Below are positions 1 through 56,099 of a stretch of 64,000 nucleotides of DNA, piece after piece. The notes below the pieces were generated by a model. It made no database searches. It was not told the DNA's origin and saw only the letters and a list, made by a program, of their open reading frames with translations. The position numbers and the translations under genes were made by a program. Position 1 is the first letter of the stretch; each line of letters opens with the position of its first letter. The DNA comes from Psammoneis japonica (Eukaryota): assembly GCA_008632985.1 (NCBI GenBank), contig QPGO01000001.1:962404-1026403 (forward strand). The letters are read 5' to 3'.

Positions 1-299
1 CAGAATGTCACAAGTGTTGACAAAGAGTGCACAGATGTGGCATCTGTGGCCTCACTTCATTTCAATGGAGATGTTGCTGCAACAGTTTGATGAACGGGAG
101 GTCCTCATGTTGGGCAGCATTGCCACATGGACGCAATTGAGCATTTCTTAAGTTGTGCAATTGATGACAAGGATGTGAAGCTGCTGATCACTGCCAAAAC
201 GGTTTGCCATCACACTGCAATGCAACATCAATGGAAGCAAACTTCCAAGCACACCTTCAGCACAGTGATCATTTGAGTGTTGACTCCAATCCCAAAAAG

Positions 300-2620
300 A
301 CTCTCAAAACTGTTGTGAAGGATGTGAAGCGGGGAGGTGCTGTCCGTTTGACAAGAGCTTTTGACTCCATTTCTGCTCAACTGCCATGTGACACCTCACA
401 GGATCATTGACTTTGACCAACCCCACAAGATGCCAAGACCAATTTTTGACAGCTTGTTTTGACCGGAGAAGTGGAGCATGACTGTCAAAGACTGAATGTC
501 CAAGGACACAGAGCCACCCCTGTTGGACGAGAGCACAGAGATGGATCTCATGAAATGGATCTGCAATTTGCACATGTCCTGCAGTGAGGAGGAAATTGTG
601 ATTGGTGACATCAATGTCAGGGGAGCTTCTTGCAATGACAAATGCCCATCCAACTGGTTGCCATGCACACAAGTGTGCAGGCCAGTTTTGGCATTTGCAA
701 ACTGGGAACAACTTTGGGGACAATGCAAACCCCTTGAACTGGCAAGTTGTCACAATGGCTCATCAGCAGTTGTTGCAGACATTGTGGCATTCAGAGGGAG
801 TCATTGGCATGACTGCCTCATTTGTGCCACAAATTTGGTTCTGCCCGGAACCTGGTGATGAGGACATTGCATCTTTTGCACCGGCAATGGCAGACTCCAT
901 CAACAAGGGAGTGTGTGATGAGCACAGCCTCTGAACAGTGCCTCCATGCACACACCATGTTGATGACAATGTGTGTGTGCAGATGTTTGAGTGCACCTCC
1001 CATGAATGCCAACGGCAAGCGCACTGTCACCATTCTGTGCACTCTGTTTGGGCATGCCCTTCACATGGTGGGAAGGGCCTTCGACTCTCGTGCACTAGCT
1101 GTTGGAATGCTTGAAAGCAAAAAGGACCAACTTTTCAAGGCATTGACCACATGGATTGAACATGTGACCGCCTGTGACTTTTGGATGCTGCGGGCCTTAA
1201 CAGGCTGCTCAAGAATCACACAAGATGTGTGCAATGGGTGCACCCACTCTTTTTCACAATGCAGAATGACACACAGGCGGCTTTCAAGCAACACCATCAC
1301 ATCATTCATGATTGGTGGAATGAGGATGTCAAGGCAAAAAGCAAACTCTACACCAATTGCCCAATTCCCAGTGCAAGCAAGTTGATCAAATTGTTGCCAA
1401 GGAGATGGCAGCCCCACTCTGGCACACGCGAGCCAAAATCCACTGTTAGATGAACTTTGGCATTCACTGCACTTGATTCAGAATTGCCTGCAGACTCGTC
1501 CCAAGTCATTCTTGGAATGCATTGGGTTTGTCATCCCAAGAGACCCAGATGTCCGGAGCTGCAGAGATGCAAACATGGATCATGGGGGGGTGGCTTTTGC
1601 CCAACACTCCATTTCTGGTTTGACATGGGATGGAGCCCCACATTTTGCATGGTGTCAGGAATGCTGGGCCATCCACAAAAAAGGGCATCTCCATGTCAAC
1701 CAACAACCAACTGGGGTTCCTCATTGTCACTCTCCAGTTTGCAGGTGCAATGACACGCATTCGAACTGTGACATGGGAGCAAGCAGAAAGCTGTTTTCTG
1801 GATGGGGTCTCCCCCTTGGCCTGTGATGCTCTCCAAATGCAACAACACTGGTTCAGTGAAGTGGAGTGACAAGACCTTCACTGCATTGCTCTTGGCACAG
1901 GCCCTCACTGCCCATTTTTGTGAACTCTTGAAAACTTTGAAGATTGGACAAGATGCTTGGCACCTTGAGGGGATGCTGAACAAATTGGTGGATGCCATCT
2001 TGTGCCAATCTGACTGAGCTCTTCCTCTCTCCACTCGTTGTGCTCAGCTGTGTCAGAAGTGGCCTGTGATGAGGAACTCTGGAGCCATTTTCTCTCAAGT
2101 CTAGAGCTGCTGCAGGGCCTCTTCTGTGCTCTGTTCTCAGTCTCAACAGCTGTTCTGGTTGCAATTCCCAAGAATTTAGGATGCTTTGTTTTCACGCCAA
2201 ATCCATTGCTTCCGGTTTGCCCATGACGTGAATTGGCACAAAGATGACCCTGGCATGACAATGCAGAACCTGCCGCTGACACATTGCCAATGCATGTTGG
2301 CAATCTACATGGTGCACCTTGCACCCAGAAGTGCATTGTTTTGCAAACAGATCAAACTTGATGGGATCAAAAAACACCTGTTTGCAGTCGCAACTTTTTG
2401 TGTGCTTCATTTCTGCAGAAAGAGTTGGGACATTTGCAAGAGCAACCCAATGGACAAAGAATTTTGCCCTGTCCTGAAGGCAAGAGCAACCCAATGGACA
2501 AAGAATTTTGCCCTGTTCTGAAACGGTGTTCAAGCAGATTTGGGATTGTGAAGATGCACCTGACCGTCGGGAGCCTGTGACACCCGAAACAACAATGGAG
2601 CAAATTTGTTGCAGGGAGGA
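300..2620 (+). mobile_element. Decayed tyrosine-recombinase (Ngaro/DIRS-like) retrotransposon fragment: RT/RNase H-like and N-terminal YR-like remnants
   Basis: Broken ORFs include 'QALTAHFCELLKTLKIGQDAWHLEGMLNKLVDAIL' (resembles the DIRS-type RNase H end H.pG..N..aDa) and 'MLAIYMVHLAPRSALFCKQIKLDGIKKHLFAVATF...DRREPVT' (resembles the N-terminal part of the YR ORF). Many stops; TA and CG depleted. Boundaries approximate. Confidence 0.45.
2436..2523. repeat. Tandem duplication, 44-bp period, 2 copies
   Basis: gcaagagcaacccaatggacaaagaattttgccctgt starts at both 2436 and 2480. Confidence 0.9.
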
Positions 2621-2699
2621 GATCATGATGGAAAAAGCACCAGATGGACTCCTGGCAATCCAAGGTGACTGGAGCCAGGGCAGTGTGGGGAACATGCCC

Positions 2700-4290
2700 A
2701 GTCCAAGAATGGGACAAACCTGCAGAAGCCTCAGCAGAACAAAAGGAAGGAGACTGAAGCGTTCTGTTCACCGATGTTTGGATCCAAACCCGGGACAGGA
2801 AGCATCAGACAGGGGTGGATGTTGCCTCCACTCCTCTCACCATTGTTGAGTTTGTGTGGGTCAAATTCTGCATCCAGAAAAATGGGGACAATGGGCAAGA
2901 GATCAAATTCAAGTGCGTGGATGTGCTGACAGCCATGTGCCAGTCTTGGTGCTGCACCCCATGGCTTGAGCGGTCTGCAGGTGGAGAGTCTTGAGAATCT
3001 CAATCTGAACATTTCCTCATGATTCACTTTCATGTCTTTGTGGAATGATGGGGTGGATTTTGAGCAGTGGTGCAGTGAGATGTTCATGTGAGAACATGCA
3101 AGAGCATTTGTTTTGTGACTCTGCACTGCCACAGACTCAATTGGACAAGAGATGGACAGTCCTGCAAATTTTGTTGGGAGAACAACAAAGCTGTTCTTGT
3201 TTTTTCACACACTGGGGACTCAGCAGCCAACACTGGAGGAAACAAGCTCTGCAAAATGATTCTTGATGTTCTCAAGGTTGTGTTCTGGGACAATGTGCAA
3301 ATGAGAGCATTCTTGGAGTTCATGTCAGCAGGGTGGCATTTGTGCTTGGGACCAATGGTGCAAAGTGCAAAGCAAGAAAATGAATCTCAGAGGACAATGA
3401 ATTTGCCCACAGCAGCAGAGAGTTGCTGGCATGCTGAAGGGCACAAGCATGTTGGGGAGTTGAGCATTGAGCATTGGACCAGTGGAAGAAGGATCAGCCC
3501 ACATGCTGCCATGCCCAGTGGATCACCTTGGGTGGTGCTTTCCTTGCTGAAAAGGAAGGAGACTGTGCCAACGTGTCCATGGACAATTGGGGTCACCCAA
3601 TGCTCACAAAAAATTGACGACAACCTGCCCCAGATGGCCCATTGTGTCTCACATTGTGCAGCATCAAGGTCCCATTCAATTCATTTGCTCTGCTGGAGGT
3701 GTCAACAAACAGAAAACCACAGCCATCTTCAACCTTGTGTTGCTCCCAGAGCATGTTCACATCATGTGAATCTCACTCTTGACATCAGCACAGAGCTGAT
3801 CCATGCCACAGGCTTCCTTGGCTTCAGCTCTGCAGCTTCTGATGGCTGCCCAGATTTTTGTCTGGCACCAAGAGTGCCTTTGCTGTCATTGCTTGGCAGG
3901 CTGCTATCCACAGAGGACAAGACTCATTTGCCAAACAGTTTGTGAACATGCGCAATTCTTCCCTGAGCAAGAACCCGCTGGCTTTGCTGTGGCAGAGCAG
4001 CCACCATGACTCCACACAGGCATCTGACCCGACAAGTCCAACACCACTCCTCAACATTTTTCTTGTGATGGTTTCTGTTGCACCACCTGTGATGACAACA
4101 TCTTGAAGCTCCTCCAGCAGTTTGCTGAATTTTTTGTGAAATTGGTCTGCAAGAATTCTTCAATCAGGACATTTTGAGTGCATTGCATCTCAAGATGGGG
4201 CCATTGGTTCTTTCATCAATGTCATCCAGTGTGCAAGCAGCCCACCTTTTTTAACATTCAGAAATGCATTTTGCTGCATCCCACAAGTTT
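2700..4290 (-). mobile_element. Decayed non-LTR retrotransposon RT fragment (CRE-like)
   Basis: ORF 3387..3623(-) 'LFSKESTTQGDPLGMAACGLILLPL' matches the RT motif S.eGv.QGDPL.m..Y.l.l.Pl, with Y replaced by C. Boundaries approximate. Confidence 0.5.
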
Positions 4291-4293
4291 CCT

Positions 4294-5916
4294 CATGGTG
4301 CCGTTCTGTTGAATGTCTTGGCATGCTGCTCTCTGGTGATTTTTCCCTTTGTGAGATGGACTCAAGATGGCTTTCAAGAAGTTGTTCCATCACAAGAATG
4401 AGCATGTTGTGCTTGACCACACTCCAAGTTACATCTGTTTGCCTGGCAAACAGGGTTCTGACATTCTTGGCTCTTTTTGCATTGTGACCCTGCAGCAAAA
4501 CTGCCATTTGGAGTGCAGCAAACCTCTCTGAGCTCCAATTTTATGTCATGGGAATTTCATTTTTGGACACATCAAGCTGATTTTGATCTTTGATCATCTG
4601 AGCAAGAGCAGACACATGAGGACTGAAATCATTGCAAACAATCGTGTTGACATCATTGTTGATTCAACGGACGCTTGTGTCATTTGTCAACGGCTGTGTG
4701 TTCTGCATGAAAGAGCAATTTCTTGGTCGAATGCATAATTTCCTTGTTCTAAAAAACCCGGGTGTGGCGCCCTGGCTGGATTTGGCGCCAAGACTGAACG
4801 ATTCACTGGCCGGGTCGCGCCACAGGATCGATGAAGGGCTTTTTGCCGAGCATTGCTCGGATTTGCCAATCCAGTGTCTCCCTGGGTAGTTCCTGTCCAG
4901 ATTGGTTTGGCTGTGGGACTTCAAGACCAGACAACAAAGAAGACAGATGTGGTCAAGCGTTGGCGGTTCGCAGTGGCACGTGAAAAATGAGCGGTGGAGG
5001 GTGCAGGCGTTCCATCGGAGACTGGTGCAGCCAGTGGAACACGATCTGCGAAGTTGCGAATCGATGATGCCACATTGCATCCACACATGCTCCTGCTGTG
5101 CACTCCAACTACTTGAAAATTACGGACACATCTGTGAGCTGTGTTGTCTGCGCGCTTGTTGTTGTCGACTCTTCCAATTTTGGCTCAGCCAATTGCCAGA
5201 AAAAATGAATGATCATCTGGCGGTTTTCTCCGACCTGCTTTCATCGTCTAATCAATGTTTTGGGAAGTGACCATATGGGAAGACAAGAAAATTCTCACTG
5301 TCATTGTCACAAACTGCCTGCAAACTTGAGCCTTTCGTAATTGTTGCGGTTGTCGTTTGTTTTTACGTCTCTTTTTCCTGCCTCATTCCCACATGTTCAC
5401 AGCAGAAAGTTGCACCCCAACGTCACGTTTTGCGCCACTGGCTGCCAGCCACTAGAGAGGTATTTTAACAGATGACACGGCATTCAATCGTGACGGGATG
5501 CACATGCTGATTCTCACCATGCCCTCGCCAGGCACCACGGCCAAACACCTCCAGCCGCCAGCTCCTTTCATTTCACATTGGAGAGACACCAGTCGGTCAT
5601 TCTCATTGCAACAAGCAACACCATGGTGTCAAACACAACTGGTTTCACAGCACCTGATGGTGCAAACCCCACAAGAGATTTTGGAGCTGAGTTCCGTAAA
5701 CTGTGCAAACCGGTTGACCCTGCCAACCATGGTGAGTTCGAGGGCACAGTTTCAGCTCTGATCCAGGAGGCATCTCTGGATGAATCCGAATGCACCAAGC
5801 GATCTGCTCCAGTGGCTGTTCAGCGTTGTCGTCAAGGGGGGAAGACGTTCATGCTTCATGCTGTCGCCAGCACGCTGGAGCACTGCAAAGGCAACAGGCT
5901 CCCATCAGATACGATG
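4294..5916 (+). repeat. Copy A of a ~1.62-kb direct duplication flanking the Penelope-like element; holds a 3'-truncated, mutated 5' end of the gene at 11647
   Basis: Aligns end to end with 10316-11940 (catggtgccgttctg... to ...gatacgatg); offset 6022-6024. Confidence 0.95.
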
Positions 5917-6354
5917 TTTTGAGTTTTTTTGTTTCACATTTTGAGTTTGTTTACTTGCGCACTTGCTGCAGTAGAGTGTGCTTCTACATCTGACAGCAGC
6001 AACATCAACTCGCTCTTTCTCCAACACCGTTGGAGTTTTTTGAGTTGATGATGCCTCACTCATTCTCATGCGCGCTTCGCGTGCATTCGAGATCTATGAT
6101 CCACACGATTAACTCACCATGCGCACCGCGCACGGGTGGATCTTTCTGATGCGGCTTTTTCAACGCCTGTAACGTCAGCTGCGACGACAGCCGTAGAAAA
6201 ATGCCGATTTCGAATTTTTTAGCTCGAAAAACAGCCGACAACACTGATGAAGCGAAAGCGAAAGCTCACATCATCGAGCTTTGTATGTCAGGCAACTCTC
6301 AACAGATTGCTGTTGCGCCAAAGGCTGTCAGTGCATTGGACAACCCCGAAAACA
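5917..6354 (+). repeat. 5' pseudo-LTR of the Penelope-like element
   Basis: Runs from ttttgagtttttttgtttcac to caaccccgaaaaca; repeated at offset 3963. Confidence 0.9.
6234..6293 (+). ncRNA. Type I hammerhead ribozyme (copy 1)
   Basis: GCC-GACA-ACA | CTGATGA | A-GC-GAAA-GC | GAAA | GCTC-acatcatc-GAGC | TT | TGT-a-TGTC-a-GGC. Conserved core plus stems I, II and III pair. Confidence 0.75.
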
Positions 6355-6374
6355 GTGTGCACAGACTTCCAACA

Positions 6375-7780
6375 ATGACTGCAGCCAGCGCGTCCGCTCC
6401 GACAACCCCACCTGCTCGCAACAGACGAAACAACGCAGCCGCGCGCACCGTGCGATTCGCTGCCGCAGCAGCAGCGACAATGACGGCGCCTGCGGCGCCA
6501 CAGATCTTGGCAGCTAACCAACGTAAGTTGGACAAACTAGCCCCTTGTCGCGAAGCGATCGAGACGCAGCCAACAGGATTCAAGGACATTGTCGAGTCAC
6601 TGGCCACTCGCATGATCACTCAGTGCGGGCTTGTAAAGAGCAGAAAGCTGAGTCCATCAGCTTTCCCCGGCACTGATGACAATCCACACATCCCCAAATG
6701 TTGCAGGCTCAATGTGAACCTCACACATGCGGACCGGCTCAACGATGATGCCACTGCCCAAGAGCTCGTCCAGGAGATGAAAGACCTGGTTGCATGCTTT
6801 GAAAAGGATGCAGCCAAACTGCACACAAGATGGCCTCACGTGAACTTGAGGTTGTGAAAACCAACCGAATACGAGAATTGGTCGAAGCTAGCCTTGTTCT
6901 CTTCCAATTCTACATTGACCATGTAAAAGAGTTCAAAGGCTCTACAGACCCAACAATGCGTCAACTCAGTGGAGTGCTGCTCATGCCCCACTTGTGCGAC
7001 GTGCTGCCATCGAGCTTCCTGAGAGACTGCCTTGAGACTTCTCCCAAAGAAATCATCAAGGAAGTTGAACGCCAGCTTCGACATGAAGGACCCTTCAGTC
7101 CCGAAGACAGCACCCCTCCCTCAACTCAAGAGAGCACCGAAGACGTGCACACACAAGAGGATGCCACGCGCACTCAGGCCGCACTGGCAGCAAACTTGAA
7201 CCCCCTGCTCGAAAGTGAACACGTGAACCACGAACTTTCAACAGGTGAGAAAGTTGTAAAAGAAGAAGTGTTCAAGGAAATGAAACAGTTCTATGAACAA
7301 GTCACCATGCAATTGCAACACGCCCTGGACAAAGAAGAACGATTGAAATCGGTCAACGCCAAGCCAGAGGCAAAGTGGAAACGCTGCAAGAAGGAACAAG
7401 CAGCTGACCTCGTCGCAACAGCTCTTGAAAACGAACCGACAGTTCAATCCCCCGCCCTCGACGAGTTGATCAACAAAAAGATTGACAAAAAAGTCGCAAG
7501 CCTCAAAAAGCTCCACAAGAAGGCAAACCGTTGGCAAAAAAACGACAAGGGCGGTCGGGAAGCCCCACCGGCACGAAAGAACGACGCAGCAAAAGACAAC
7601 GAAATGCAAAAAGGAAAAGGAAAGCGGAAACGCCAACCCCAAGCCTCGAAGACGAATGGGAAACCATCCGCCAAGAGACAAAAGAACGAAGCCAAGAACC
7701 GCCATGGAAAAAGAAAAGGGAATCACGGAGGACAGCACAGAGGCGAGCAAAGAGGCAAGAGAAGCAACAGGCGAAACTAG
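6375..7780 (+). pseudogene. ORF1 of the Penelope-like element (helical/coiled-coil with basic K/R-rich C-terminus), frameshifted near 6830
   Basis: ORFs 6201..6857 and 6830..7780 overlap; heptad-like E/K/Q-rich segment and basic tail; lies directly upstream of the RT. Confidence 0.6.
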
Positions 7781-9794
7781 AGGCGAAACTCCTCTACCAA
7801 CGCACCGAGCTCCCCATCAAAATTGCCGAGAAACAATCGGACCGCCACTGCGTCAGAATCCATGGATTCATGCCAAATCCTGACGCCCCCCTGTGGGAAA
7901 ACGCAGCAACGGCTGTCGGCAAGATGAAAGCTACGGCATGCTTCAACCGCCTGGACAACATGTCTTACCATGACCTCTGTACAAAGCTGCAACCACCCCC
8001 GGGTGCTGGATTACTGTCAGGACTTGGACACAAGTTTTGTGTGGAATCAAGCACCCCGTTCCCACACAACTGCTGAGGCGCACAACGCTTCCGACGAACC
8101 ATGCGTCTGCGGAACTTTGTCGAGAACTCCGAACTCGTAAACGACGAAGACGGATGCAACCCACACCCACACGTCCCCTCTGATTTCGACCCTCCACCGA
8201 TTGAAGACGGGACAATAGAACTTCGAATGATGGACTTTGCAAACAAGACAGACAGAGCCAGTCGAACAGCCAACCGCCAACGACCCCACTTTAATTTGAC
8301 GCCTCAGCAGCATCGAATGCTGCGAACATTGCAAAACGACAGACGATTCGTCGTGTGTCTTATGGACAAGAATCTTGGTCCAGCCATCATGGAGCGCGAA
8401 GTGTGCATGAAACGGGCCCTCAGCGACCACCTGCTCAACCAGAAGAACTGCCAACGCCACACGGAACAAGAAAAGAACACATTTGTGAGAGCAACTAGAA
8501 GACGCCTACGCAACGCATGCCACCTTGCAGCCGACAGCCTCTCTGAAGCGGAAAAAACTTACTTCGAAAGAAGTTTCAAAAAGAAACACCGCACACCACA
8601 GTTCTGCATCACTCCGAAAGTCCACAAAAAACCGTGGACGACACGACCAACAGTGAGCTGCATCAACAGTGAAAATGAAGTGTTTTCAAAATGGTTGGAT
8701 TTCAAAATGAAAGAACTTCTACCCCCATCGCGAACGTACATCCGAGACTCTCACCAAGTCCTCGCCGACTTACGATCACTTGGAAAGCTGCCACCAGATG
8801 CCAAGCCATTCACAGTCGATGCAGCAGGAATGTGTGCCAATGTCAACACCAACCATGCTCTGGAAACATTCCACCGGTGGTTCCTTGAGTGCCCCAATGA
8901 GATGCCAAAAAACTTCCCAGTTGACTTCTTCCTCACCGCACTGGAAATCGTCATGACAAGAAACATCACCCAGTTTGACGACACCTGCTGGCTCCAAATC
9001 GATGGCACAGCCATGGGAACCAGCACAGCCTGTGTGCACGCCACCATGCCAAGGCTCTCCACGAATGCCAAAGTGTGCTGACCCGATTCAACTTGAACCT
9101 GCCCCATTGTGGACGATTCACAGATGACGCACTCGGCGAATGGACAGGCGGTGAAGGTGAAACATGGGAGAAGTTCAAACATGAACTGAATGACTTCGGC
9201 ACCTTGGAATGGGAAACCTCCGAGCTCAGTGACCAAGTTGCATTTCTGGATCTCGATGTCAAGATTGGAGCAAACCGGTGTGTTGAAACAAGAACGCACC
9301 AGAAGGCCATGAACCTGTGCCTCTGCACACCCCCAAGCTCAGCACATCCACCTGGAGCACTGAGAAGCATTGTGCATGGAAACCTTCGGATGCATCGGGC
9401 ACAAAATCCGAACAACAAGGATCACCAAAAAACAGTGGCCCAGTTCTTCAACCGGCTGACAGCGCGAGGCCACAACAGAGAGCACCTCAAGAACCTCTTT
9501 GTGGATGCAGCCGCCACTGTCCACCGGAAAAAGGCCCCATGCTCCAATGTCGCTGACCCATCCAACACTCTTTTCTTTCACCAAGAGTGTCACCCACGCA
9601 GGATGGCTCGCACTGAAACAAGAAGAGCATGTGAAAAAACCTGCGAAGGGCACAGCGGGTTCAACCGGTTGGCAGTGGCGCACTCAAGACCCAAAAATCT
9701 AAGAGACGCCCTCACACGAACACCACCAAAGGAACCCAACGGGCAGCATGCTTCAGACATCATTAAAAAACTCTCTGATGCACCGGAGCTCTGA
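7700..9794 (+). pseudogene. Reverse transcriptase ORF of the Penelope-like element, broken near 8076 and 9075
   Basis: ORFs 7531..8076, 8101..9081 and 9075..9794 carry RT motifs in order (DKNLG, PKVHK, RP.VS, GTAMGT, RFxDD, FLD). Positions normally Tyr read Cys/His. Start approximate. Confidence 0.85.
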
Positions 9795-9879
9795 TTGGCG
9801 ACTCCGTCGCGACGAGTCACCTCCGGCAAAAAACTCAAACGGGCTGCCTGCCGCGCCACGGCGCCACGGCTTGTGCCCG

Positions 9880-10317
9880 TTTTGAGTTTTTTTGTTTCAC
9901 ATTTTGAGCTCATTCACTTGCGTGCTTGCTGCAGTAGAGTGTGCTTCTACATCTGACAGCAGCAACATCAACTCGCTCTTTCTCCAACACCATTGGAGTT
10001 TTTTGAGTTGATGATGCCCCGCTCATTCTCATGCGCGCTTCGCGCGCATTCGAGATCTGTGATCCACACGATTGACTCACCATGCGCACCGCGCACGGGT
10101 GGATCTTTCTGATGCGGCTTTTTCAACGCCTGTAACGTCAGCTGCGACGACAGCCGTAGAAAAATGCCGATTTCGAATTTTTTAGCTCGAAAAACAGCCG
10201 ACAACACTGATGAAGCGAAAGCGAAAGCTCACATCATCGAGCTTTGTATGTCAGGCAACTCTCAACAGATTGCTGTTACGCTGAAGGCTGTTAGCACATT
10301 GGACAACCCCGAAAACA
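9880..10317 (+). repeat. 3' pseudo-LTR of the Penelope-like element
   Basis: Direct repeat of 5917-6354. Confidence 0.9.
10197..10256 (+). ncRNA. Type I hammerhead ribozyme (copy 2)
   Basis: Identical to 6234-6293. Confidence 0.75.
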
Positions 10318-11940
10318 TGGTGCCGTTCTGTTGAATGTCTTGGCATGCTGCTCTCTGGTGATTTTTCCCTTTGTGAGATGTGGACTCAAGATGGCTTTCA
10401 AGAAGTTGTTCCATCACAAGAATGAGCATGTTGTGCTTGACCACACTCCAAGTTACATCTGTTTGCCTGGCAAACAGGGTTCTGACATTCTTGGCTCTTT
10501 TTGCATTGTGACCCTGCAGCAAAACTGCCATTTGGAGTGCAGCAAACCTCTCTGAGCTCCAATTTTGTGTCATGGGAATTTCATTTTTGGACACATCAAG
10601 CTGATTTTGATCTTTGATCATCTGAGCAAGAGCAGACATGTGAGGACTGAAATCATTGTAAACAATCGTGTTGACATCATTGTCGATTCAACGGACGCTT
10701 GTGCCATTTGTCAACGGCTGTGTGTTCCGCATGAAAGAGCAATTTCTTGGTCGAATGCATGATTTCCTTGTTCTAAAAAACCCGGGTGTGGCGCCCTGGC
10801 TGGATTTGGCGCCAAGACTGAACGATTTACTGGCCGGGTCGCGCCACAGGATCGATGAAGGGCTTTTTACCGAGCATTGCTCGGATTTGCCAATCTAGTG
10901 TCTCCCCAGGTAGTTCCTGTCCAGATTGGTTTGGCTGTGGGACTTCAAGACCAGACGACAAAGAAGACAGATGTGGTCAAGCGTTGGCGGTTCGCAGTGG
11001 CACGTGAAAAATGAGCGGTGGAGGGTGCAGGCGTTCCATCGGAGACTGGTGCAGCCAGTGGAACACGATCTGCGAAGTTGCGAATCGATGATGCCACATT
11101 GCATCCATACATGCTCCTACTGTGCACTCTAACTACTTGAAAATTACGGACATATCTATGAGCTGTGTTGTCTGCGCGCTTGTTGTTATCGACTCTTCCA
11201 ATTTTGGCTCAGCCAATTACCAGAAAAAATGAATGATCATCTGGCGGTTTTCTCCGACCTGCTTTCATCGTCTAATCAATGTTTTGGGAAGTGACCATAT
11301 AGGAAGACAAGAAAATTCTTATTATCATTATCATAAACTGCCTGCAAACTTGAGCCTTTCGTAATTATTGCGGTTATCGTTTGTTTTTACGTCTCTTTTT
11401 CCTGCCTCATTCCCACATGTTCACAGTGGAAAGTTGCATTTCAACGTCACGTTTTGCGCTACTAGCTACTAGCTACTAGAGAGGTATTTTAATAGATAAT
11501 ACGGTATTCAATCGTGACGGGATGCACATGCTGATTCTCACCATGCCCTCGCCAGGCGCCACGGCCAAACACCTCCAGCCGCCAGCTCCTTTCATTTCAC
11601 GTTGGAGAGACACCAGTCGGTCATTCTCATTACAACAAGCAACACCATGGTGTCAAACACAACTAGTTTTATAGTACCTGATGGTGCAAACCCCACAAGA
11701 GATTTTGGAGCTGAATTCCGTAAACTATGCAAACCGGTTAACCCTGTTAACCATGGCGAGTTCGAGGGCACAGTTTCAGCTCTGATCGAGGAGGCATCTC
11801 TGGATGAATCCGAATGCACCAAGCGATCTGCTCCAGTGGCTATTCAGCGTTGTCGTCGAGGGGGGAAGACGTTCATGCTTCATGCTGTCGCCAGTATGCT
11901 GGAGCGCTGCAAAGGTAATAGGCTCCCATTAGATACGATG
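10316..11940 (+). repeat. Copy A' of the ~1.62-kb duplication, continuous with the downstream gene
   Basis: Aligns with 4294-5916 and retains most TpA sites that copy A has lost. Confidence 0.95.
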
Positions 11941-13239
11941 ATCATCTTCGTATCCCTCAATAGCGTGACACCATACGCTCGGACCGAAGAGGCAGCCTGC
12001 GATGCCATCCTTTCTAGAATTGCGTGGGAGATCACCGATCGAACTGTGAAGTCCTTCATTAGTTTCAGACAAAAACACAGCGACTTTGGTGCTGTTGATG
12101 ACTGGCTGACGGACAAGAAAGTTATTCTCATCGTGGACGAGCTTAACATCATTCCTCACACCGCACCCCGGTACGATGATATGAGCGCACTTGTCGCCAA
12201 TATCGTCCAGCGAGTTGGATGCGCTTTGCTATACTCAACTCACAAACGTAGTGCAGCTGATTTGCTGAGAGGACGTGTCGCAAACGATTGTGATCTCACC
12301 TTGACTCGGCGCCGACACATTTGGAAACAAATTCCACGGATCGTGAATGAAAATTGTCTTCGTGGCCTTTACAAGGATCCGACGGAAGAGGCTTCTTTTT
12401 GGACTGCCGTCCTACGTGGGCGACTTCCTGCATTGGTCTTGCAAGATTCTGGAACGATTGCTGAATACACGGACGATATATTTCTGGACGATGATGGCAA
12501 AGACGAGCGCATCAAATGTCTCAAGGCTACTATTTCTGGTGACATTTCCTCCCTCGCCAACAACGCCCGCAATCTATTCCGAGCGTATTCTTACATGAGC
12601 GAAAGATTCACTCAAAGCAACTAAACACCTAGATATGCATGGCCTGCCTTCATGATTGCCCAAGAGAGAGTCCTGGGGAAAGACTACAGGCAGCTTACGG
12701 CCACTTTGCAGCACCCTAGTATTGATGAAGCGAAGGCCTTTGAAGCGCTTACCCAGCTGGCGATCCTTATGCGGTTGATGACTGGATTGGAACACGATCT
12801 TGTTCCTCGTAATAGCAAGGTCATTGCAGAGGCGGGTGTCGAGTCATTCGAAGCAACCGAGCTCTTCTATGTTGGGGTGGAGGCAACCACCGTACAACAA
12901 ATCGTTGCCTCCATTGATCGCCAGTTCGCTCGTCGGTGGAACGTCAAACTGGTGGCGGCGGTACCCCTCCTTGCTTCTTTTCCTGTTTATGATTTTTTTG
13001 TCTTTCACAGAATCTCTGACGAATGGAAGGCAGTGGCTGGCTATCAGTGCAAACAAGGCGGCAAATGCCCCAATGAAGACGCCGACGAAGGAATAGGTCT
13101 ATCTGTCTGGTTGGGAGGAAAATGCCGAAAGTATAAGAAAACACGGGGTGGCTTCTGTTGGGAGAAAGTAACCAAACGGATTGCTCGGTGTTTCAATTTC
13201 CGAAGCGCTCCCTCAAGATCCATCGACAGAATTCACTAA
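11647..13239 (+). pseudogene. P-loop NTPase plus C-terminal restriction-endonuclease-like domain (Crinkler-type architecture); in-frame TAA at 12622-12624
   Basis: Walker A-like 'RCRRGGKTFML', Walker B 'VILIVDELN', C-terminal 'YDFF...GYQCK' (D...QxK). ORFs 11602..12624 and 12652..13239 share a frame across one stop. Confidence 0.55.
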
Positions 13240-15599
13240 AGAGTGCGTTGCCGAAAAGTACATAGAGGAGCAGCAAGTTACGGGTGCGCCACCAGCCAAG
13301 AAGGCACGAGCTCCTGATGCCACATAGTGCTTCTATCAACTCAAGTAGCCAGCTACGAGTAGCTAGTAGACGACGTGGTGATAACAATTGTTTGCGTTCT
13401 ACTTTTTTGTTTACATTGTACTTTTTATTTAACCTGAGCAACAAAGTGGATCCAGGACGTCAAGGTGGACTCACTCGTATAATAAGGCATAACAACACCT
13501 CTGCATTTAGTTAGAGGATGGCGCAATCATTTCCCTTGCTGTTTGAAGCATCTGCTTGGCTGTTACAAGTGTTGGGATCGGCAGGGTTTATTTGAGCTCC
13601 TTCCAAGCTGCAGAATGTTGCCACCACCGGCTTCCACATAAAAGAAACCCTCAAGTTTTCCCCGCTCCTTCTTCTCCTGGCCTTCCATGCCACAAAATTG
13701 AGCAATGACTTTGCTGTCCACATGTTCCTTCCAGCTGGCACTGCTTTCGAAAACCTCAACAGTCTGACCCCGACATTCCCTTGCAAGCAATCTAGGCTGT
13801 TCCAACATGTTGACACTCTGATTCACCATTTTGATCTTCTTGTTTGCTGCCAACTCATGGACAGTGCTCACAGTCAAACAAAACACATCTTGAAAGTGGG
13901 AAAACAAGCAATTAACCTCCAATTTTCAAAGTGGGGCACTGAGAGGGATCATGGTGGCAAGAATGTGGCTTGCAATTGTCTGTTCTTCTTCTTTGGCAAT
14001 GGACAGCTGACACACTCTTTGCAAAAACAAGAGTTGGTTGGATGACCCTCTCCCCCTCCGCTGGCAACACAAAGCCACGTTTTTGATCACAACCCGGTCC
14101 AGCACTTGAGGAGGAGTGTGTCCTTGGGCATGTCTGTTCTGTTCTTTAATGTGCCTTCTAAAGTTGTGCAGGCACAGCACATGAGCCAGTCTGATGGAAT
14201 TTGATGCACAAGACAGAAACCCCCACCCTGGGCTTTTGCTCTGCTCAAAAATGCAGCGACCTTCCCTTCAGATCTAAAGAGCCCCTGCAGCTCAAATGTG
14301 CATTGCCATCACATTTGACTGAGCAGCAAAGGCATGAGTGTGGTCAACTTGTCCCAAAGCAAAACCAAGCACATTGTGCTTGAAAAACACGCAAGCAAAA
14401 ACAGACTGTGCTCTCCCCCAATGCCATCTTCTCACCCCTCTTTTGGTCAATGATGATGCCTCAAATGCAAATTTGTGCTTTGTGCTTCTTAAGATGTTCA
14501 CAAGAATGCTGTTTAATCCAATGAGCATCTGATGCTGGACATCATGTTTGTGCTCAAAAGTGCTGAGTCTTTTGGCACTAGAGCGAGCAAAAAAATTTTA
14601 GCGTGCATCAAATGATTGACCATCTTCAATTGTGTCACCTTCTTTTTGAGCACTTTTGAGTTAGAACAACATGAGCTGCAAGCAAACTTTGGTGCCAGCA
14701 GGCATGTCTACATTTTAAATTGGGTGAAGAACTGCATCCTGCAGGGAAACTGCTCAGCAGTTTCAGTGGTTGGTTGCAAAGCCATGCCAGCTGTCCATGG
14801 AATTCTGCAGGAGCCAAAAGGTGCTTCTTGGATGGAATGCTGTGGCAGACACAAGTTGCCGATGGCAGGCTGGCTAAATTGTTGTGCTGATGGTGGAACT
14901 CTCACCACTGAACAAGCATCCATCTTGCACACAATGTGATTGAATTTGTTTTTTTTTTTTTACACAAGTGAGGCAACAACAGCAGGGGCAAACAGCTTGT
15001 TAGAAAATTTCTTGCCCTGTTCAGTGTTTGGTCCAAGAAAGATGCACTCAAGACATGTGTCATGCACGTGTTTGGCACAATGGAGTGAACAGTGGATCAC
15101 TGCTCCACTCATCTTTTTCAGCAGCTCAGTTGGCAAAAACAAGTCTCTCGTGCATTGCATCTCTTGAGGTTGCCAGGAAAACTTGGGGACTCAGCAGTTG
15201 GGCCTGCAGACTCTCCTGTGCCTCTTGTGAATTTGGTTTCAGTGGCAGTCTCATGCACTTGTGAAGGCTTTTGCAATTGCAAATGGTGTGCCCAGATTTT
15301 CAACTGGTGCTGCAGTGTTTCTTGCATCTTTTGGCCAGTGGAAGATGAGCTGATCATTGGAAACTGCTGTTGGCACCAATCAGGTGCTTCTTTGAGTTGA
15401 GGACAGCAGGACTTTTGTGGTGCACATTCATGGAGTTGCACTTCTGTCAAAAAGCACTCAGCCTTGCTTGCAGAATGCCAGGGAATGGCACAGCTCCTGG
15501 GTTCTCCTCAAGAATTTGGGTGTGGCTGTCTCCAGTGACAAAAGTGGCACCCATGCTTGGCCCCAGTCATGCCCTGCAGGCAAAAGGCATTCAACAAAA

Positions 15600-17200
15600 C
15601 CTTGCTGAATTGGAGGCTTGAGTGCTTGGATCCTGGTGTGTGAGACAAATGGGTTGGTCATCTCAATCCAAGCTTTCACCCATCAAATCCACCAATTCAT
15701 TGTCATTGAGCCTTGTTGTTGTTGTCATTGGAGGTTCTTGTTCCATCATTCTTGGCAGTGAGTGTGCCACTTTGCAGTGGCTCTTAAGTGGAGCCAACAA
15801 TGCAAACATTCTGTGACACATTTTCACCATCTTTTTCTCTGTCCAACAATGTGCGTGCACATGCTCTGGTGTCTCTGCTGAGCATGTGTGCTCTGACAGT
15901 CATTGGTTCTTGGACCATTTGGACAGATCCAGCTGATGGTCATCTGCACTTCATTCATGCTGACACTGATGACAGCAGGCAAGGCAAATGTGACATGGGC
16001 ATTGCTTTCCTGGTTCAATCACCACCAGTTCATTGCACTCTTGCTCCATTTTCTGTTTGCCCAAGTTGCAGCTTTTGACTCTTGTCCACATGGCAGGAAC
16101 AAAGAGATTCTTGTGGGCCCATTCAGAAAAGGTTTTTTTTGCTGCCTCATCCTCCACAGCAAGCTGACCTGTTTGCATGGATCTGCACCTTGTGACAAAT
16201 GGACCTGAAGCCAATCTTCTTGTCTTTGTCATTTGCAGGCAAGAACATCCTGATGCTTGAACAAATGCTGGGTGTGCTTGGCTGTTGGCCAACTGGCGCT
16301 CAAACCAAGATGAGCCACCATGCTTGAATAACTCTGCTTGGTTGGCACAGAGCCATTGAGATGTAAATTTCCTTCCTGCTCCAAGACAGCACCTTGCGCA
16401 ACACTTGGGATTCCCACAATTGATGCTTCTTGGTGGCACTTGCAGCTTCAACGCATCTGCCTGGACTGTTGCCTTTGCTGACTCAAAAGCATTGTCCCAC
16501 TCACTCTTGGACTTGGATTCAATCACAGTTCAGAGGCAATTCTGGATTTGTGGGTGGTGCACTGGTCCAAAGGCTTTGTCTGATGGGAGCACTGTCACCC
16601 CTGGGAAGCATGTCATGATTGCTGTCATTGTTCTCACACCCCAATTCTGGGGAACAAACAAAGCCTTGAGTGATGTGTTGGTCTGCAAACACAATTTGGG
16701 TGTGCTGACAATCCATCATGGCTTTATTTTGACCCCTGACAAAAGCATCCATTGGCAGCACTTGTGGGCCTCTTTTGCACACGTGCTCTCTGTCACACAC
16801 TGGACTTTCATTTTGCAATCCCTCACTCATGAGGGCCAACATGTGGCCAACCTTGACAATTGCACTGTCATTTCTGACCATCATGTGGAAAAAGAACGTC
16901 CCAGTTCCCCCAATCACTTCTCATTGCATTTCCACCATCATCATCCAGAAAAGGGCATCAGGATGGCCAGTCTGGTCAAGTTTCAAATGGAAGTCAAGTG
17001 CAAACAGTTGTTTGTTCAGATCTTGCAAAAGGATCTGATTGACCCTCCTTCTTGCATTGTGTTTCTTGGCATTTTTCTTAGATTTGGTCTTGACAGTCAG
17101 AGAGTGGACAGCTGCAACACAGTGGAAGGTGTGAATGCTGCACATCATCCACTGTCACATTGATTCCAACTTCCTCACCAAATGCATTTGACATTGGATG
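15600..17200 (-). mobile_element. Heavily decayed MULE-like DNA transposase remnant
   Basis: Fragments 'QIVFADQHITQ', 'SKSEWDNAFESAK' and 'LHLNGSVPTKQSYSSMVAHLG' resemble the MULE DDE region (D...; ..aEq.hS). Many stops. Confidence 0.35.
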
Positions 17201-17453
17201 ATCAACTGGTGGAGTGTTGTTTGCGCATTTTTGAGAATTTGTTGCAGCATCCATGTGTTGTCAGAAGCTTTCAGTGGTTCATGCACCAAGTGCTGACAAT
17301 CTTTTTGCCACCTTTCAGACATGTCAAAAAGAACAGGGGGTCCCACAATTGTTGTCGCATGACAGCATGGGTGACCACAATTGTGACGGTGTCCACAGCT
17401 GCACTCGACATGTCCAGTGTTGGAACTTCACAGCTTTCCAGCTTGTCTGCGCT

Positions 17454-19357
17454 GGTCAAACCAATTCCAGATCTCACTGCATGGGTTGCAAACACACATC
17501 CAGTGCTGTCACCTTGCTGTTCTTGCACCAATGTTTTGCCTTGGTGCAGAAGTCAAAAATTGAGCAAAAAACTCATGTTCACAATGAAGCTGTGCACATG
17601 AATCCACCACGTCACTTTCAGTCATCAGCAATCTTTCACTGCAACATTGTCTGTCCATCCTCCCAAAGTCACCTTGATGCACCAACACACACCTTCACAC
17701 AAGCTGTCAAACATTGACCCAGTGTGCATTTGTCCAAGGAGGATGACAGTTGTGAACCATGCCACCCCACACCATGCCAACTGCTTCAGCGAGTGAAACC
17801 CATGGCTCTCATCATCCAACTCTGTCATCAAATGATCATTGTCATCCTTGAGCATGGGGCAATTGCTGCTGCTGACAGGCCCATCCTTGTGACATTCTCA
17901 GCTTTTGATCTTCTGTTTCTCTCATTGCACAAAACCAGTGCCTTCAGATTTCTTGTTGAGCCCGCACATGTCCAACACCTGCAGCACCTCTTTGGCCAAC
18001 TTGGAACAGTTTTCCACCCCCCAGTGAAAACTGCTGTTGTGGGTTGTCCAACATGCATCCATGTTCCTTTTGGCATGTCCCTTCCATTGGCAACACAGCC
18101 AACAGCTTGTTCCTCTCTTTCTCCTGGGTGTCATCAGCATCTGTGTTGAACCCATCCCCTTTTTTGGCACTTTCTTCTGGACAACACCACCACAGGATCC
18201 CTCCTCCACCATCTCAACAATGCTCACAAACCAATTGCAAACATCTTTAAGCACCTCTCCACTGTCTTGACAAATGAGCACCAGCTGCTTCCAAGCTTCA
18301 ACTGCTTGAATGTGTGAATGGACTCTCTCTCATTTTGCATCAAACAACATCAACTTGAGAATTTCCAGTGGCACGATTACGTCCCACTCCTTCATGACCC
18401 TTGCAAATCCAACTGTTCCTTCTTCAACCCTGTGTCAAACTGCCTTTGCACACTGTCACATGATTGTGCTAAATTCCTTTGCCTTCTGCATCTCATGGAT
18501 TGCTTCCTGTTTTAAATGGTGGCATGTTGTTCCCCCCAGATCACCTTGTCCTTTTCTGGTGGAGTCACGCTTGACGGAACATCCGGCTCCTTGGGTCAGT
18601 TCTGATCTTTCCTCAGAGACACCAGCATCTGCATTTCTGGTCCAAACATTCTTCCAATGTGCTCACTCATCTTCCTTGTGGTCTCTGTGAAACCATCTGC
18701 TTGTCAGTCCAACTTGGCAATGGCACCACACACCCACTCCTTCAAATCTACAGTGCTTTTGTGCTCAGTTGTTTCTTTGCCCACAGTTGGGTGTCTCCAG
18801 GAAACAACTCCACTGCCCTTTTGTCAGCAGACCCTTGCAGCTTTCTCTCAGCAAGGCCCCACAAGAGATCATCTCTTTGCCAGCCACTCCTTCATTGGAG
18901 CAACAAATCTGTCCCAACTCTTGTCAGTCCAGCAACCTTGAATGTCTTGTGCTCACACTGACCAAGTCTCATGTTCCCATCAACTCTCCAGCCTTTGTTC
19001 AGATTGCTGTCAACTTCCCAGCCTTCACTCAGATTTCCATCAACTTCCCAGCCTTTGTTTGGCTTCCTGTCAACTTCTCAGCCTTCACTCAGATTCCTGT
19101 TGACTTTCCAGCCTTTGTTCAGATTCCCCTTGACTTCACAGCCTTCACTTGGATTCATTCTTGGCTTCCCAGCCAGCCCTTTTTGACTTGTGTGTTGGAG
19201 CTTCATGGCTTTTTGACTTGTCTGCACATGGTCAAACAAATTCCAGATCTCACCACATGGGTTAAAAACACACATTGGGCACTGTCACCTTGCTGTTTGT
19301 CTCATGCCAACAACATGCCACTCTCGTGCAGAAGTCAACAAGTGAGCAAAAGACCCA
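17454..19357. repeat. Imperfect ~125-bp direct repeat pair (17454-17575 and 19230-19357)
   Basis: ggtcaaac.aattccagatctcac..catgggtt..aaacacacat....ctgtcaccttgctgtt...gtgcagaagtcaa.aa.tgagcaaaa present twice. Confidence 0.75.
18978..19156. repeat. 30-bp minisatellite, ~6 units
   Basis: Units resemble caacttcccagcctt(tgt/cac)tcagattcctgt and abut without unique spacers. Confidence 0.85.
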
Positions 19358-21642
19358 CAAAATGGAACTTTGAAGTGTTCATGCACAGAATCTTGTTGCC
19401 CAAGTAAAAGTCATCATTTAAAGTGTCAATGGTTTCAGGGGAAAATGATTCCTTGAGGCGTCAGCGGAGCCAAGAAGAGTGGCAGAAGCACGAGAAAAAA
19501 TCGGCCCAAACCCTGATTTTTATGATTTTTTCTACATAAAAATTCTGTGTGATTTTTGGACCAGTGCACATGGCTCATTGACTTTGGAAAATTTTGAGGC
19601 ATGGATTTGCAGGAACTCTTGTGAGTCCCCATCACTGATGATTGCATGGACTCATTTCTGTGGCCCTGAGTTCTGCCCCAACAAGCTTGGCATCCCTCCT
19701 GAAGAACCCAACAACAAGTCCACACTCACATTCATTTGGGAGGCAAATCTGCAGGATGATGAGTGTCTTCCCTTCTGCACACTCTTGCCACACACCAACC
19801 TTGCCACACACCAACCAACAGAACCATGCAGTTCTTGCAAGCAGCAATTTCTGGTGCAGCTTGGCTTGCATCATGGATCAGTGCACTGAGCTGCACTTGA
19901 CTGCATTGGTCTGATGTTGGCCAAGAGTCACAATCTTGGACTCAACAGTTTAGTCTGTCAAGATGTCAAACTCAACAAAGCCTTTGTTGCAGCTGCATCC
20001 ATTCACCAAGAAGGGGAGCACTGTCACTGTCATTGTCATTCAATGCAACAGACATGTGGTTGACCAAGGTGGGCATCATGTCTTCATCGTCAGCATCTTT
20101 GTCATCACGACACACAAGATCTTGGCAATTTGCATCATCAGGGTCAACAACAGAATTGTTTTTGGCATTGTCTCTGTGTCATCTGCCTGCAGCTCATTTT
20201 TTGTGTTGTGCTCAGTGATGGATGTTGTGACAGCAAGATCCTTTCACACCTTTGAGAGTGGCTGATGACCCTCTTTGGGAGGATGGCTTTTTTGGTGCTT
20301 CAGGAATTTGGATTGGACAGAGTGATGCAGTGAGGTGAATGACACAGGGACTCTCACCTTTCATGCAAGCAGTTGAGCAACTCATTGAAGGAAGACAACT
20401 TGCATGCAGAGACAGCCAACTGCAGTTGGGGCTGAATGCACTGCTCCTGAGACTGAGACAATGTCTGTTTGGTTGTGTGGTGTGCCAGGTGGCAAAGAGT
20501 GCCAGATCCAGTTGATGCAGTGGCACCCATCTGAAAATGAGCTTTTTTGTTTCTTCAGACAGTTGTGGCAGGGACCAAGTGGCATGTCCCCCCTCTTGTG
20601 GATGCATGTGATGTGTGTGAGCCCCACCGCCATGGCCAGACAACAAGCACAAGCACCCATTTTCCAAGCTGCTGAACTTGTGGAACTTGATCATTGGCTG
20701 CAAACAACAACGGTGCTCTTTGCACAGAGGGAGCACCGCTGTGGTGCACCTGTCATTGCTTGGCAATGCACAGCTGTGACTGAGCTTCTTGCCATTGTGC
20801 ATGGAGCAACAGGGCAAATTGCCAAATGTTTGGTGCGGTGGAAATGACTCATTGCCAAACTCTTTTTGCACTCTTCAGCGGGATGGTCTTTGGGTGCTTT
20901 GGCTTGTGTGCACCTTGTGATTGCAGCACTCAAAAATGCCATGACCCTGGTCACCTGCTGTTCATGGCAGCTGTGTTTTGGATGTCCTGTGTCAAGCCAA
21001 GATGTCCTTTGTTGTCAGGGGGGGGGGGGGGGGGGCATCTGAGGGCAAAACTTGACAAGTGTTCCCACCTGGTTCTTTTGTCAATTTGCATGGCCAGCTG
21101 AGATGCTGCCCATGAGCTGCTTTGATGGCCATGTCTGGAGCTCATCAAGAGATTTCTGATTTTTGCTTGACAAACGGGAGGCAGTGAAATCATGTTTGGC
21201 AGGTGAGTGTGCACCAGGTGCAGCAGCAGCAACATCTTAGTGCAAAGTGATGGAGTCATCATGTGATGCAGCGACAGTGCTCAGAAGCATCACCTCTGCA
21301 TGCAAATGACAAAGTAGCAACAACAGAGTGTGAGAAGACACATGCTGGGTTGGCAAACAATGGGGTGAAGCAGAGCTCACTGGCATGACAGCAAATGAGC
21401 CGTCTGGAGCAGCTGGCTGTGTCACAGCGCACCAGGTGGGTTCTCACTCTTTGTTTTACGTACCGACGTGCGACATAGGTGGAATCATAACATTCAGTAA
21501 TGAAGAAATAAAAAAAATGGCAACGGCAAATCGAAAATCGCGGATCGATCGCGTGTTCACCCGGTTCACCCGGTTCACCCGGCATCGGGACGATGTCAGC
21601 CACTCTGTCGACCCTCATGGCTATTGATCTCTACTCCCTTAG

Positions 21643-55830: not shown

Positions 55831-56099
55831 CCGGACCCGCATGTGCATTCTTGGCAAACAACAGCTGGAAATGCATTTCGCATCATTTGGTCCTTTTCCA
55901 TCAACTGCGCTGCATTGCTTCATTGGTTCATTCATTGCATCCCAACAGTGTTGCACAATGACAACAACATGGGACGATTCTTCAATCTGCAGCCATTGGG
56001 TCTGTCTGTCACTGCTGTTGTCAGGCCTTCACATTGCTGCGGCATGGCATCTGCCGTGCTGCCCTCCTCTGACAGCAAACGCTGCAAAACAGGGAAGAT

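Follow-up and report, generated by a model that had tools for sequence, protein, structure and literature searches.

A TpA to CpA/TpG hypermutation signature in silent, retroelement-associated DNA of the diatom Psammoneis japonica

To our knowledge, the mutators recognised until 2026 as agents of genome defence, repeat-induced point mutation (RIP) and APOBEC, all deaminated cytosine. A preprint on mutation-accumulation lines of the chlorarachniophyte Bigelowiella natans (Mettrop et al., bioRxiv 10.64898/2026.01.13.699255) describes in its main text two integrated viral regions that mutate about 1000 times faster than the remaining genome, 230 of 231 changes being A to G or T to C and the GC-biased changes falling all on TpA. 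The same text reports clustered windows poor in TpA and rich in CpA+TpG, and proposes an ADAT2-like DNA adenine deaminase. We have found this signature in a diatom, in a 64,000-nucleotide stretch of Psammoneis japonica (GenBank assembly GCA_008632985.1, contig QPGO01000001.1, positions 962,404 to 1,026,403; hereafter the window). Within it, a retroelement with long terminal repeats (LTRs) lies between two copies of a duplicated segment, one of which (copy B) is still joined to a gene for a P-loop protein, while the other (copy A) contains a displaced duplicate of the upstream region and 5′ end of that gene.

An earlier account of this DNA, made by a model from the letters alone (the sequence-only reading), had noticed the signature and knew of no described system that carries it; the B. 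natans preprint, in the text cited, is such a description. Judged by its signature, the process appears to have been reported once only before, in that unrelated alga, and a literature search combining diatoms with TpA, CpG, transposable elements, RIP and dinucleotide returned no description of it. We consider it probable that duplex DNA in the window has undergone hypermutation that is regional and tied to one sequence context: TpA becomes CpA or TpG in silent, non-genic stretches associated with retroelements.

Context, strands and polarity of the changes at TpA

Comparison of the window with itself by BLAST gives two aligned segments of 95.9% identity each, 4294–5916 against 10316–11940 (1625 columns, 65 mismatches and one 2-bp gap) and 5916–6354 against 9879–10317 (439 columns, 18 mismatches). 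They make up a duplication of 2.06 kb that is circularly permuted: copy A (4294–6354) has the order X-Y (X1-Y1) and copy B (9879–11940) the order Y-X (Y2-X2), and the two are 96% identical. The 1.6-kb duplication of the sequence-only reading is thus a real repeat whose length was put too low.

The copies differ by 83 substitutions and one 2-bp insertion or deletion, and all but one of the substitutions (82/83) are transitions. Copy A has C or G where copy B has T or A at 57 positions and the opposite holds at 25. By class, 47 substitutions exchange TA with CA or TG, 14 form seven pairs in which CA in one copy stands opposite TG in the other, 12 exchange CG with CA or TG, and 10 are of other kinds. 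The 62 TpA steps of copy B read in copy A as TA in 20 cases, CA in 23, TG in 19 and never as CG, as expected if a single hit abolishes the target. The reverse is rare, just 5 of copy B's 355 CpA and TpG steps reading TA in copy A. CpG is lost more slowly: 10 of copy B's 96 CpG have CA or TG at the same place in copy A; 2 changes run in the opposite direction. If copy B is taken as ancestral, T to C occurred at 42 of 124 sites in TpA (34%) and at 15 of 967 in other T contexts (Fisher p = 1e-30), with no context other than TpA exceeding 2.5%.

These counts bear out the earlier observation that the copies differ mostly at TpA (42 of copy B's 62 being CA or TG in copy A), as well as the enrichment of T to C at TpA (42/124 against 15/967) on which the sequence-only reading had made its case depend. 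Its two examples can be confirmed letter by letter: 11456–11509 has 12 TA where 5432–5485 has 3, with exactly nine differences, all of TA against CA or TG, and the four differences between the segments at 11663 and 5639 are all of this type too. Its remark that the CpGs are intact is true of both CpGs in the quoted 54 bp but not of the whole repeat, given the 10 of 96 lost in copy A. The first example begins, at 11456–11476, with a perfect (GCTACTA)x3 in copy B, which in copy A has become GCCACTG GCTGCCA GCCACTA by TA to CA/TG changes only; its decay is an example of the process masking microsatellites.

Along copy A, the CA and TG outcomes (n = 40) fall into 21 runs, where random interleaving would give 20.8 ± 3.1. 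Because the two outcomes are randomly interleaved, both strands were hit independently, at the level of DNA, in agreement with the two-strand action proposed earlier.

The background against which this took place is low, at 10 changes in 2062 bp. By arithmetic, this background rate was exceeded about 150–300 times by the bases of TpA and about 20 times by those of CpG, and the loss per site of TpA in the dated duplicate is about seven times that of CpG (68% against 10%).

Two copies alone do not say which state came first. Three independent outgroups agree that TA is ancestral and CA/TG derived, which upholds the direction first proposed (TpA to CpA/TpG, that is A to G or T to C on either strand) and answers the outgroup check named with it: the outgroups carry TA and not CA/TG.

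The first consists of 15 diatom homologues of the P-loop gene, in the covered part of which the copies differ at 11 codons non-synonymously. At 8 of these sites copy B has the commonest residue of the homologues (N 15/15, R 15/15, V 13/15, I 13/15, E 9/15, M 7/15, V 7/15 and S 5/15) and copy A at none; one site is a tie and two are too variable for a call. Five of the eight polarised changes are TA to CA/TG, the derived changes of copy A at TpA steps being AGT to GGT, GTA to GCA, AAC to GAC, GTT to GCC and ATT to GTT. Copy A also has two CpG to CpA changes (R to Q and R to H), one TpG to CpG and one transversion. Eight synonymous differences in the same region have the same bias, and neutral transitions in copy A alone would be expected to give about the numbers seen, 8 synonymous and 11 non-synonymous codons.

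The second outgroup is made up of 20 homologues of the reverse transcriptase (RT)-like protein encoded inside the retroelement. Eleven alignment columns have Tyr in at least 70% of them, one of these columns being covered by both reading frames of the window. Since both Tyr codons contain TA, these columns are a clean test. Of the window's 12 residues at these positions only 2 are still Tyr (TAC), while 7 are Cys (TGY) and 3 are His (CAY); by comparison, the window retains 180 of 223 conserved residues of other kinds (p = 7.5e-6). Conserved Ile is kept at 2 of 10 positions, the rest being V, T or M, and four conserved Leu are now Pro. Conversion of conserved Tyr to Cys or His, without TA to CG, offers a sequence test for the process that can be used elsewhere.

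The third outgroup is provided by other copies of the element, represented by contigs of higher depth. At 14 of the 15 differences listed, the window has CA or TG where these contigs have TA (10) or CG (4). At the conserved Tyr codons 8156, 8170 and 8606 the other copies have TAC and the window TGC or CAC.

The displaced gene fragment, its retroelement and the regional footprint

The features discussed are collected in Table 1. The duplicated Y segments and the 3.5 kb between the copies are multicopy, with contig depths of 150–400 compared with about 58 for unique DNA. None of the open reading frames (ORFs) in or beside the repeat, including 8077–9081 and 8979–9794, has a Pfam match, and a sequence search of the PDB with the RT-like ORF gave matches at chance level only. 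The ESM Atlas gave a lead to clusters carrying PF28514 and RVT_1, and although no more than a lead in itself it was confirmed by looking up the domains of homologues: the RT-like ORFs have 83 longer homologues of about 600–1500 residues (most 600–800), and PF28514 is found on all of those listed and PF00078 (RVT_1) as well on five of the most distant. From the terminal repeats, the multicopy depth and these homologues, 5915–10317 is an LTR-type retroelement. No target-site duplication was found flanking it. The first base pair of Y2 differs from that of Y1 by a CpG/TpG change.

X1 holds about 1.3 kb of DNA 5′ of the gene start and is contiguous with the ancestral left flank. It ends at the start of the LTR, within codon ~141 of the ORF 5494–5922, and is severed by the retroelement from the remainder of the P-loop gene. 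The simplest reading of this arrangement is that the element had inserted twice, at sites separated by 1.6 kb, and that recombination between the two would have duplicated what lay between, the promoter and the 5′ coding sequence. Immediately after the terminal CA of the LTR, X starts with TGGTGCCG (10316–10335), which resembles a tRNA primer-binding site; the likeness may be due to chance, the same bases following the ancestral left flank at 4294.

Table 1 Coordinates of the features of the window (o/e, observed over expected)
Feature	Position	Strand	Remarks
TpA-depleted block	1..5750	.	TA o/e 0.07, CG o/e 0.28, CA+TG o/e 1.78
X1 (copy A)	4294..5916	+	displaced duplicate of the upstream region and of roughly 97 codons from the 5′ end of the P-loop gene; hypermutated copy
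X1 right part (X-right, copy A)	5084..5916	.	"normal" composition at duplication; 36/47 TpA since lost
Y1, left LTR-like terminal repeat	5915..6354	+	TG...CA ends; multicopy by contig depth
Retroelement internal region	6355..9877	+	TpA o/e 0.16, CpG o/e 0.84
Basic ORF, retroelement interior	6803-7780
RT-like ORFs, retroelement interior	8077-9081 and 8979-9794		split by frameshift
Y2, right LTR-like terminal repeat	9878..10317	+	CG...CA ends
X2 (copy B)	10316..11940	+	still attached to the P-loop gene
P-loop gene (GGKT / DELN motifs)	11647..13239	+	outgroup anchor; starts inside copy B
TpA-depleted block	13751..21250	.	TA o/e 0.06, CG o/e 0.10; most CpG-poor
TpA-depleted block	27251..29750	.	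TA o/e 0.08, CG o/e 0.59
TpA-depleted block	34501..36750	.	TA o/e 0.07, CG o/e 0.33
TpA-depleted block	42501..45000	.	TA o/e 0.09, CG o/e 0.42
Hydroxymethylbilane synthase (HMBS) gene	49859-50866		housekeeping; 85–92% identical to proteins of many diatoms
TpA-depleted block	53001..63000	.	TA o/e 0.05, CG o/e 0.21; has the FG-GAP pseudogene fragment
FG-GAP pseudogene fragment	55272-55826		in block 53001..63000

The right part of X allows the fate of the two copies to be compared directly. Here copy A has lost 36 of 47 TpA (19 to CA and 17 to TG) and copy B has lost none singly. Of copy B's TpA in this part, 33 lie in non-coding upstream DNA, where selection would hardly be able to protect them singly. 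X2 retains TpA in its right part only (11108–11940), its left part having been depleted already before the duplication. The depleted DNA at 1–4323 is single-copy by k-mer depth, though old relics of repeats would look single-copy too. The earlier proposal that the process is aimed at repeats does not fit these observations, in which one of two near-identical copies was hit and a depleted region is single-copy. Given that only the displaced promoter and 5′ copy was affected (36/47 against none), targeting looks to follow location or silent chromatin and not repetition.

The signature extends far beyond the duplication. Counting as depleted each 1-kb bin with TA o/e below 0.2 and CA+TG o/e above 1.5, we find 27 of the 64 bins of the window to be depleted. 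They form seven blocks of 2.25–10 kb which together cover 34,250 of the 64,000 bp (53.5%), with TpA o/e of 0.05–0.14 and CA+TG o/e of 1.37–1.91. The blocks show an unchanged GC content (0.47–0.51) and CpG o/e values anywhere between 0.83 and 0.10. In the gene blocks that separate them, TpA o/e is 0.50–0.67 and CpG o/e ~0.9–1.0. The region 5751–7000 (1,250 bp) falls on the normal side of the cutoff, yet its TpA o/e of 0.26 is intermediate. The sequence-only reading underestimated the scale, as 53.5% of the window bears the long-term signature. No depleted bin was found among 176 1-kb bins of environmental diatom-like control loci (loci of at least 4 kb with a close relative of HMBS; 19 of 80 used).

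TpA loss is saturated in all blocks while CpG varies, which fits a fast and a slow clock, and the block 13751–21250, being the most CpG-poor, is probably the oldest. At the right edge of this block, on the border with the next gene block, there is a run of about 17 G (21021–21035). The sequence of the depleted blocks is complex and not satellite-like. Three of them (1–4300, 13751–21250 and 53001–63000) are nearly free of TA, with only TGA stops left. Since such DNA is without TAA and TAG stops it contains long spurious ORFs: 81 of at least 110 residues lie in depleted blocks, the longest of 288, and a gene caller could take them for genes. Pfam finds one true family among these 81, a host-type FG-GAP repeat. 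In this fragment, compared with a functional paralogue, none of 10 TA is kept (5 are CA or TG) and 13 of 24 CG are now TG or CA, a small and weak sample. The targets seen are thus a multicopy LTR retroelement, a displaced fragment of a host gene and a host-type pseudogene.

The P-loop protein has 70 database relatives, and the named ones are all from diatoms (Seminavis, Nitzschia, Bacillariaceae). With the likeness of HMBS to proteins of many diatoms, this places the organism among the diatoms. The gene copy joined to copy B may itself be a pseudogene. There is an in-frame TAA at 12622–12624, where the closest homologue has Gln, and the frame departs from that of the homologues near the 3′ end (~13130–13240). 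Contigs of two sequencing runs, here called X1 and X2 as distinct from the segments of those names, contain another copy or allele of the gene with small insertions at 13134–13179. Between 11908 and 12956 this second copy or allele differs from the window by 8 transitions and 8 transversions, among the 16 differences listed; the silent blocks are unlike this region, their differences being nearly all transitions at pyrimidine-purine steps.

Elsewhere, inside a gene block, 39277–40341 and 40694–41765 form a tandem duplication that is 77% identical and of normal dinucleotide composition. Its minus-strand ORFs include a match to a PT repeat.

Weighing the explanations

Several points weigh against regional TpA hypermutation. 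Of the ten "other" differences, seven are T to C or A to G outside TpA, for instance TTT to CCC at 5415–5417, so that the TpA specificity is strong but not absolute. There is no preference among flanking bases that would indicate an enzyme (3′ neighbour p = 0.048, 5′ neighbour p = 0.13). Where X is non-coding, the polarity is taken from its composition and from the coding part with which it is continuous, and not from an outgroup. Pfam assigns no true family to 80 of the 81 ORFs in depleted blocks (one of the 80 has a sub-threshold YkiC-like match), and a foreign or transposable-element origin is not shown for most of these blocks. The sequence was checked against sequencing runs through Logan contigs, which are built from k-mers and lose minor variants. 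The run that reproduces it could be the one from which the assembly was made, and no library type is recorded for it. The sole contig over 4660 and 5277 has copy B's letter there, and at the element positions listed the window's letter is absent from the contigs. Finally, the evidence comes from one 64-kb window.

Of the alternatives, a single burst of error-prone repair at the time of the duplication or rearrangement survives best, and we still regard it as improbable. DNA polymerase eta favours A to G at WA, and the densest cluster of changes (5084–5916) adjoins the junction at 5916. A WA preference predicts changes at ApA too, and here the equivalent of A to G at ApA, T to C at TpT, is found at 5 of 337 sites (1.5%) as against 42 of 124 (34%) at TpA, which also counts against repair of this type as one of the candidates named at the outset. 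The signature also recurs in both LTRs, in both left parts of X and within the element, and six further blocks at a great distance from the junction carry it. The left edge of the cluster falls where TpA was still available to be lost and not at a given distance from the break.

It is also very unlikely that the changes are an artefact of base calling or assembly, the true sequence being TA and the calls being misled by base modification at TpA (and CpG) in heterochromatin. Such an artefact would be favoured by the doubts, just described, over the origin and library type of the best matching run and over window letters of the multicopy element that the contigs lack. All 30 bins of 1–14000 are covered by contigs of run X1 at a likeness of at least 97%; those of run X2 cover 11641–13330 only, and a third run, X3, gave no cover. 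Three contigs (depth ~57–62) reproduce the TA-free 1–4323 with 3, 3 and 1 differences over 566, 1929 and 1837 bases. Moreover, miscalls split between the strands of a palindromic site should give CG too, which is found at 0 of 62 sites; 20 of the 62 TA are unchanged; and the copies differ also by the 2-bp indel and by ten unrelated substitutions.

Slightly less probable again is A-to-I editing of RNA by an ADAR/ADAT-like enzyme followed by reverse transcription, which would make copy A and the element retro-copies. The retroelement does adjoin copy A, and a uridine 5′ of the target is a known preference of ADAR, quoted in the main text of bioRxiv 10.64898/2026.01.13.699255. A single edited RNA would give changes of one sense only, in place of the 21 runs observed where 20.8 are expected, and X1 contains ~1.3 kb from 5′ of the gene start, contiguous with the ancestral left flank. 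The already depleted left part of X and Y also went on losing TA in place in both copies after the duplication: there copy A has lost 6 TpA, copy B has lost 5, and 9 remain in both. Six of the seven CA/TG pairs lie in these same parts. If these pairs are independent hits on TpA, about 9.5 double hits are predicted by arithmetic (with ~55% lost per copy) compared with 12 inferred. Double hits at CpG were considered as the origin of the seven pairs and rejected, only about 0.1 being expected (from 5 and 1 single CpG losses at 60 sites).

We had initially expected RIP, or C to T change of the 5-methylcytosine (5mC) type, at CpA in copy B, which read backwards would make CA/TG ancestral. Two copies alone give symmetric differences, C to T at CpA would also be specific (49/401 against at most 2% in other contexts), and 12 TA in 54 nucleotides look RIP-like at first sight. 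All three outgroups contradict this, the homologues having copy B's residues and not copy A's, and the conserved Tyr codons that are TGY or CAY in the window being TAC in other genomic copies. Composition is against it too. TpA o/e in X-right is 0.21 in copy A (5084–5916) and 0.76 in copy B (11108–11940), which places copy B near the gene blocks (1-kb bins up to 0.72) and makes copy A the outlier, approaching the depleted blocks. GC has gone up, not down (0.499 in copy A against 0.454 in copy B), and the depleted blocks are almost TA-free, the opposite of what RIP produces. We therefore give this explanation hardly any weight; that neither RIP nor 5mC deamination accounts for the loss of TA had been stated from the outset, and the polarity is indeed opposite to that of RIP.

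We give about the same small weight to selection that would act on intergenic DNA or its transcripts to remove TA and CG words. The scarcity of UpA and CpG with excess CpA/UpG known for cytoplasmic RNAs and RNA viruses (compare PMC3829696) would be a precedent. Against it, TA o/e is 0.01–0.10 over kilobases (far past reported suppression), a dead gene fragment has lost 77% of its TA with just 0.5% other changes, and conserved residues of a catalytic family have been destroyed.

We thus return to regional hypermutation at TpA and suggest the following scheme. In silent DNA, TpA would be turned into CpA or TpG by an A:T to G:C transition on either strand, with methylation-type decay of CpG to TpG/CpA in parallel at about one-tenth of the rate, and gene blocks, including their promoters and synonymous sites, would be spared. 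The LTR retroelement would have separated X1, with the promoter and 5′ end, from X2, still attached to the gene, so that X1 came to lie in a silent block and was converted and X2 was not. The data show the TpA context, the polarity, action on both strands, confinement to regions and saturation; the chemistry is a proposal. The lesion may be the conversion of adenine to hypoxanthine at 5′-TA-3′ in DNA, carried out by a deaminase of the TadA/ADAT-like kind that silent chromatin would recruit. Enzymatic deamination of adenine at 5′-TA is our leading guess for the mechanism, offered tentatively. Pairing with G by a thymine that has been oxidised or otherwise modified at TpA seems to us unlikely, and T:G to C:G biased repair in the TpA context equally so. 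TA reads the same on both strands, and for this reason targeting of A and targeting of T look alike in the sequence.

On a wider view, the process may be a chromatin-directed DNA-editing defence, shared by Stramenopila and Rhizaria or arisen twice in them, which has saturated about half of this diatom's genome, runs as two clocks and spreads onto host DNA; this is a serious possibility, though we would stop short of calling it probable. If it is true, the fast decay of TpA and the slower decay of CpG are two clocks with which every silenced block can be dated, and spread from retroelements to adjacent host sequence can kill displaced gene copies. Such a process can rank among the chief influences on the composition of genomes in a group of algae that dominates ecologically. 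Besides the Tyr test, the window offers a rate relative to background and evidence for targeting by location or chromatin. Diatoms have genetic tools, and the enzyme could be sought there.

Comparison with known systems

Biased repair from T:G to C:G, which turns TA words into CA/TG, is known from the very-short-patch repair of enterobacteria and goes with the scarcity of CTAG there. That system belongs to bacteria, depends on the Dcm site CCWGG and acts genome-wide; the process here is regional and far stronger.

The changes resemble the action of ADAR, ADAT and TadA in that an A to I conversion is read as G and the adenine concerned is preferably preceded by U or T. In the roles known for them these enzymes act on RNA, whereas the changes described here are in genomic DNA, on both strands and interleaved. 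For amphioxus ADAT2, activity on DNA has been reported (PMC10354150, cited in the B. natans preprint).

Deamination of 5mC at CpG resembles the slower component only. As judged from the sequence context, it probably accounts for that component, seen in the 10 of 96 CpG lost in copy A, in the block CpG o/e of 0.83–0.10 and in the R to Q and R to H changes of copy A, which the homologues polarise. Unlike the process at TpA, it cannot remove TpA.

With the RIP of ascomycetes the process shares its restriction to transitions, its dinucleotide specificity, its strand symmetry and its occurrence in non-genic or duplicated DNA, together with the formation of distinct blocks and the ruin of ORFs. It differs in that RIP makes TpA from CpA and the process here destroys TpA, and in that GC, which RIP lowers, is kept or raised (0.499 against 0.454 in the parent). 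Further, one of two duplicates was hit here, with X-right of copy B untouched, and the organism belongs to another group.

The closest match is B. natans, as described in the main text of the preprint. There, as here, the changes are almost exclusively A to G or T to C (82 of 83 substitutions being transitions in our case, with a minority component of CpG to TpG/CpA), TpA becomes TpG or CpA according to the strand (19 TG, 23 CA and no CG), and the process is confined to regions beside normally mutating DNA (copy A hit, X-right of copy B spared). Long-term depletion of TpA with enrichment of CpA+TpG in clustered 1-kb windows is common to both, and retroelement-type domains are enriched among the depleted sequences there just as an LTR retroelement is depleted here. 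The two cases differ in that the mutations there arose de novo in the laboratory and those here are deduced from fixed differences. The large viral region there has a Rho(TpA) of 0.45, while the blocks here, at 0.05–0.14, are near saturation and occupy 53.5% of the window. A parallel decay of CpG is seen here and goes unmentioned in the main text for B. natans. What was hit here is an LTR retroelement, a host gene fragment that had been displaced and intergenic blocks that cannot be annotated, no viral gene having been found in the window. Lastly, B. natans belongs to the Rhizaria and the present host is a diatom, a stramenopile; the same signature in both means that the process is not confined to one species.

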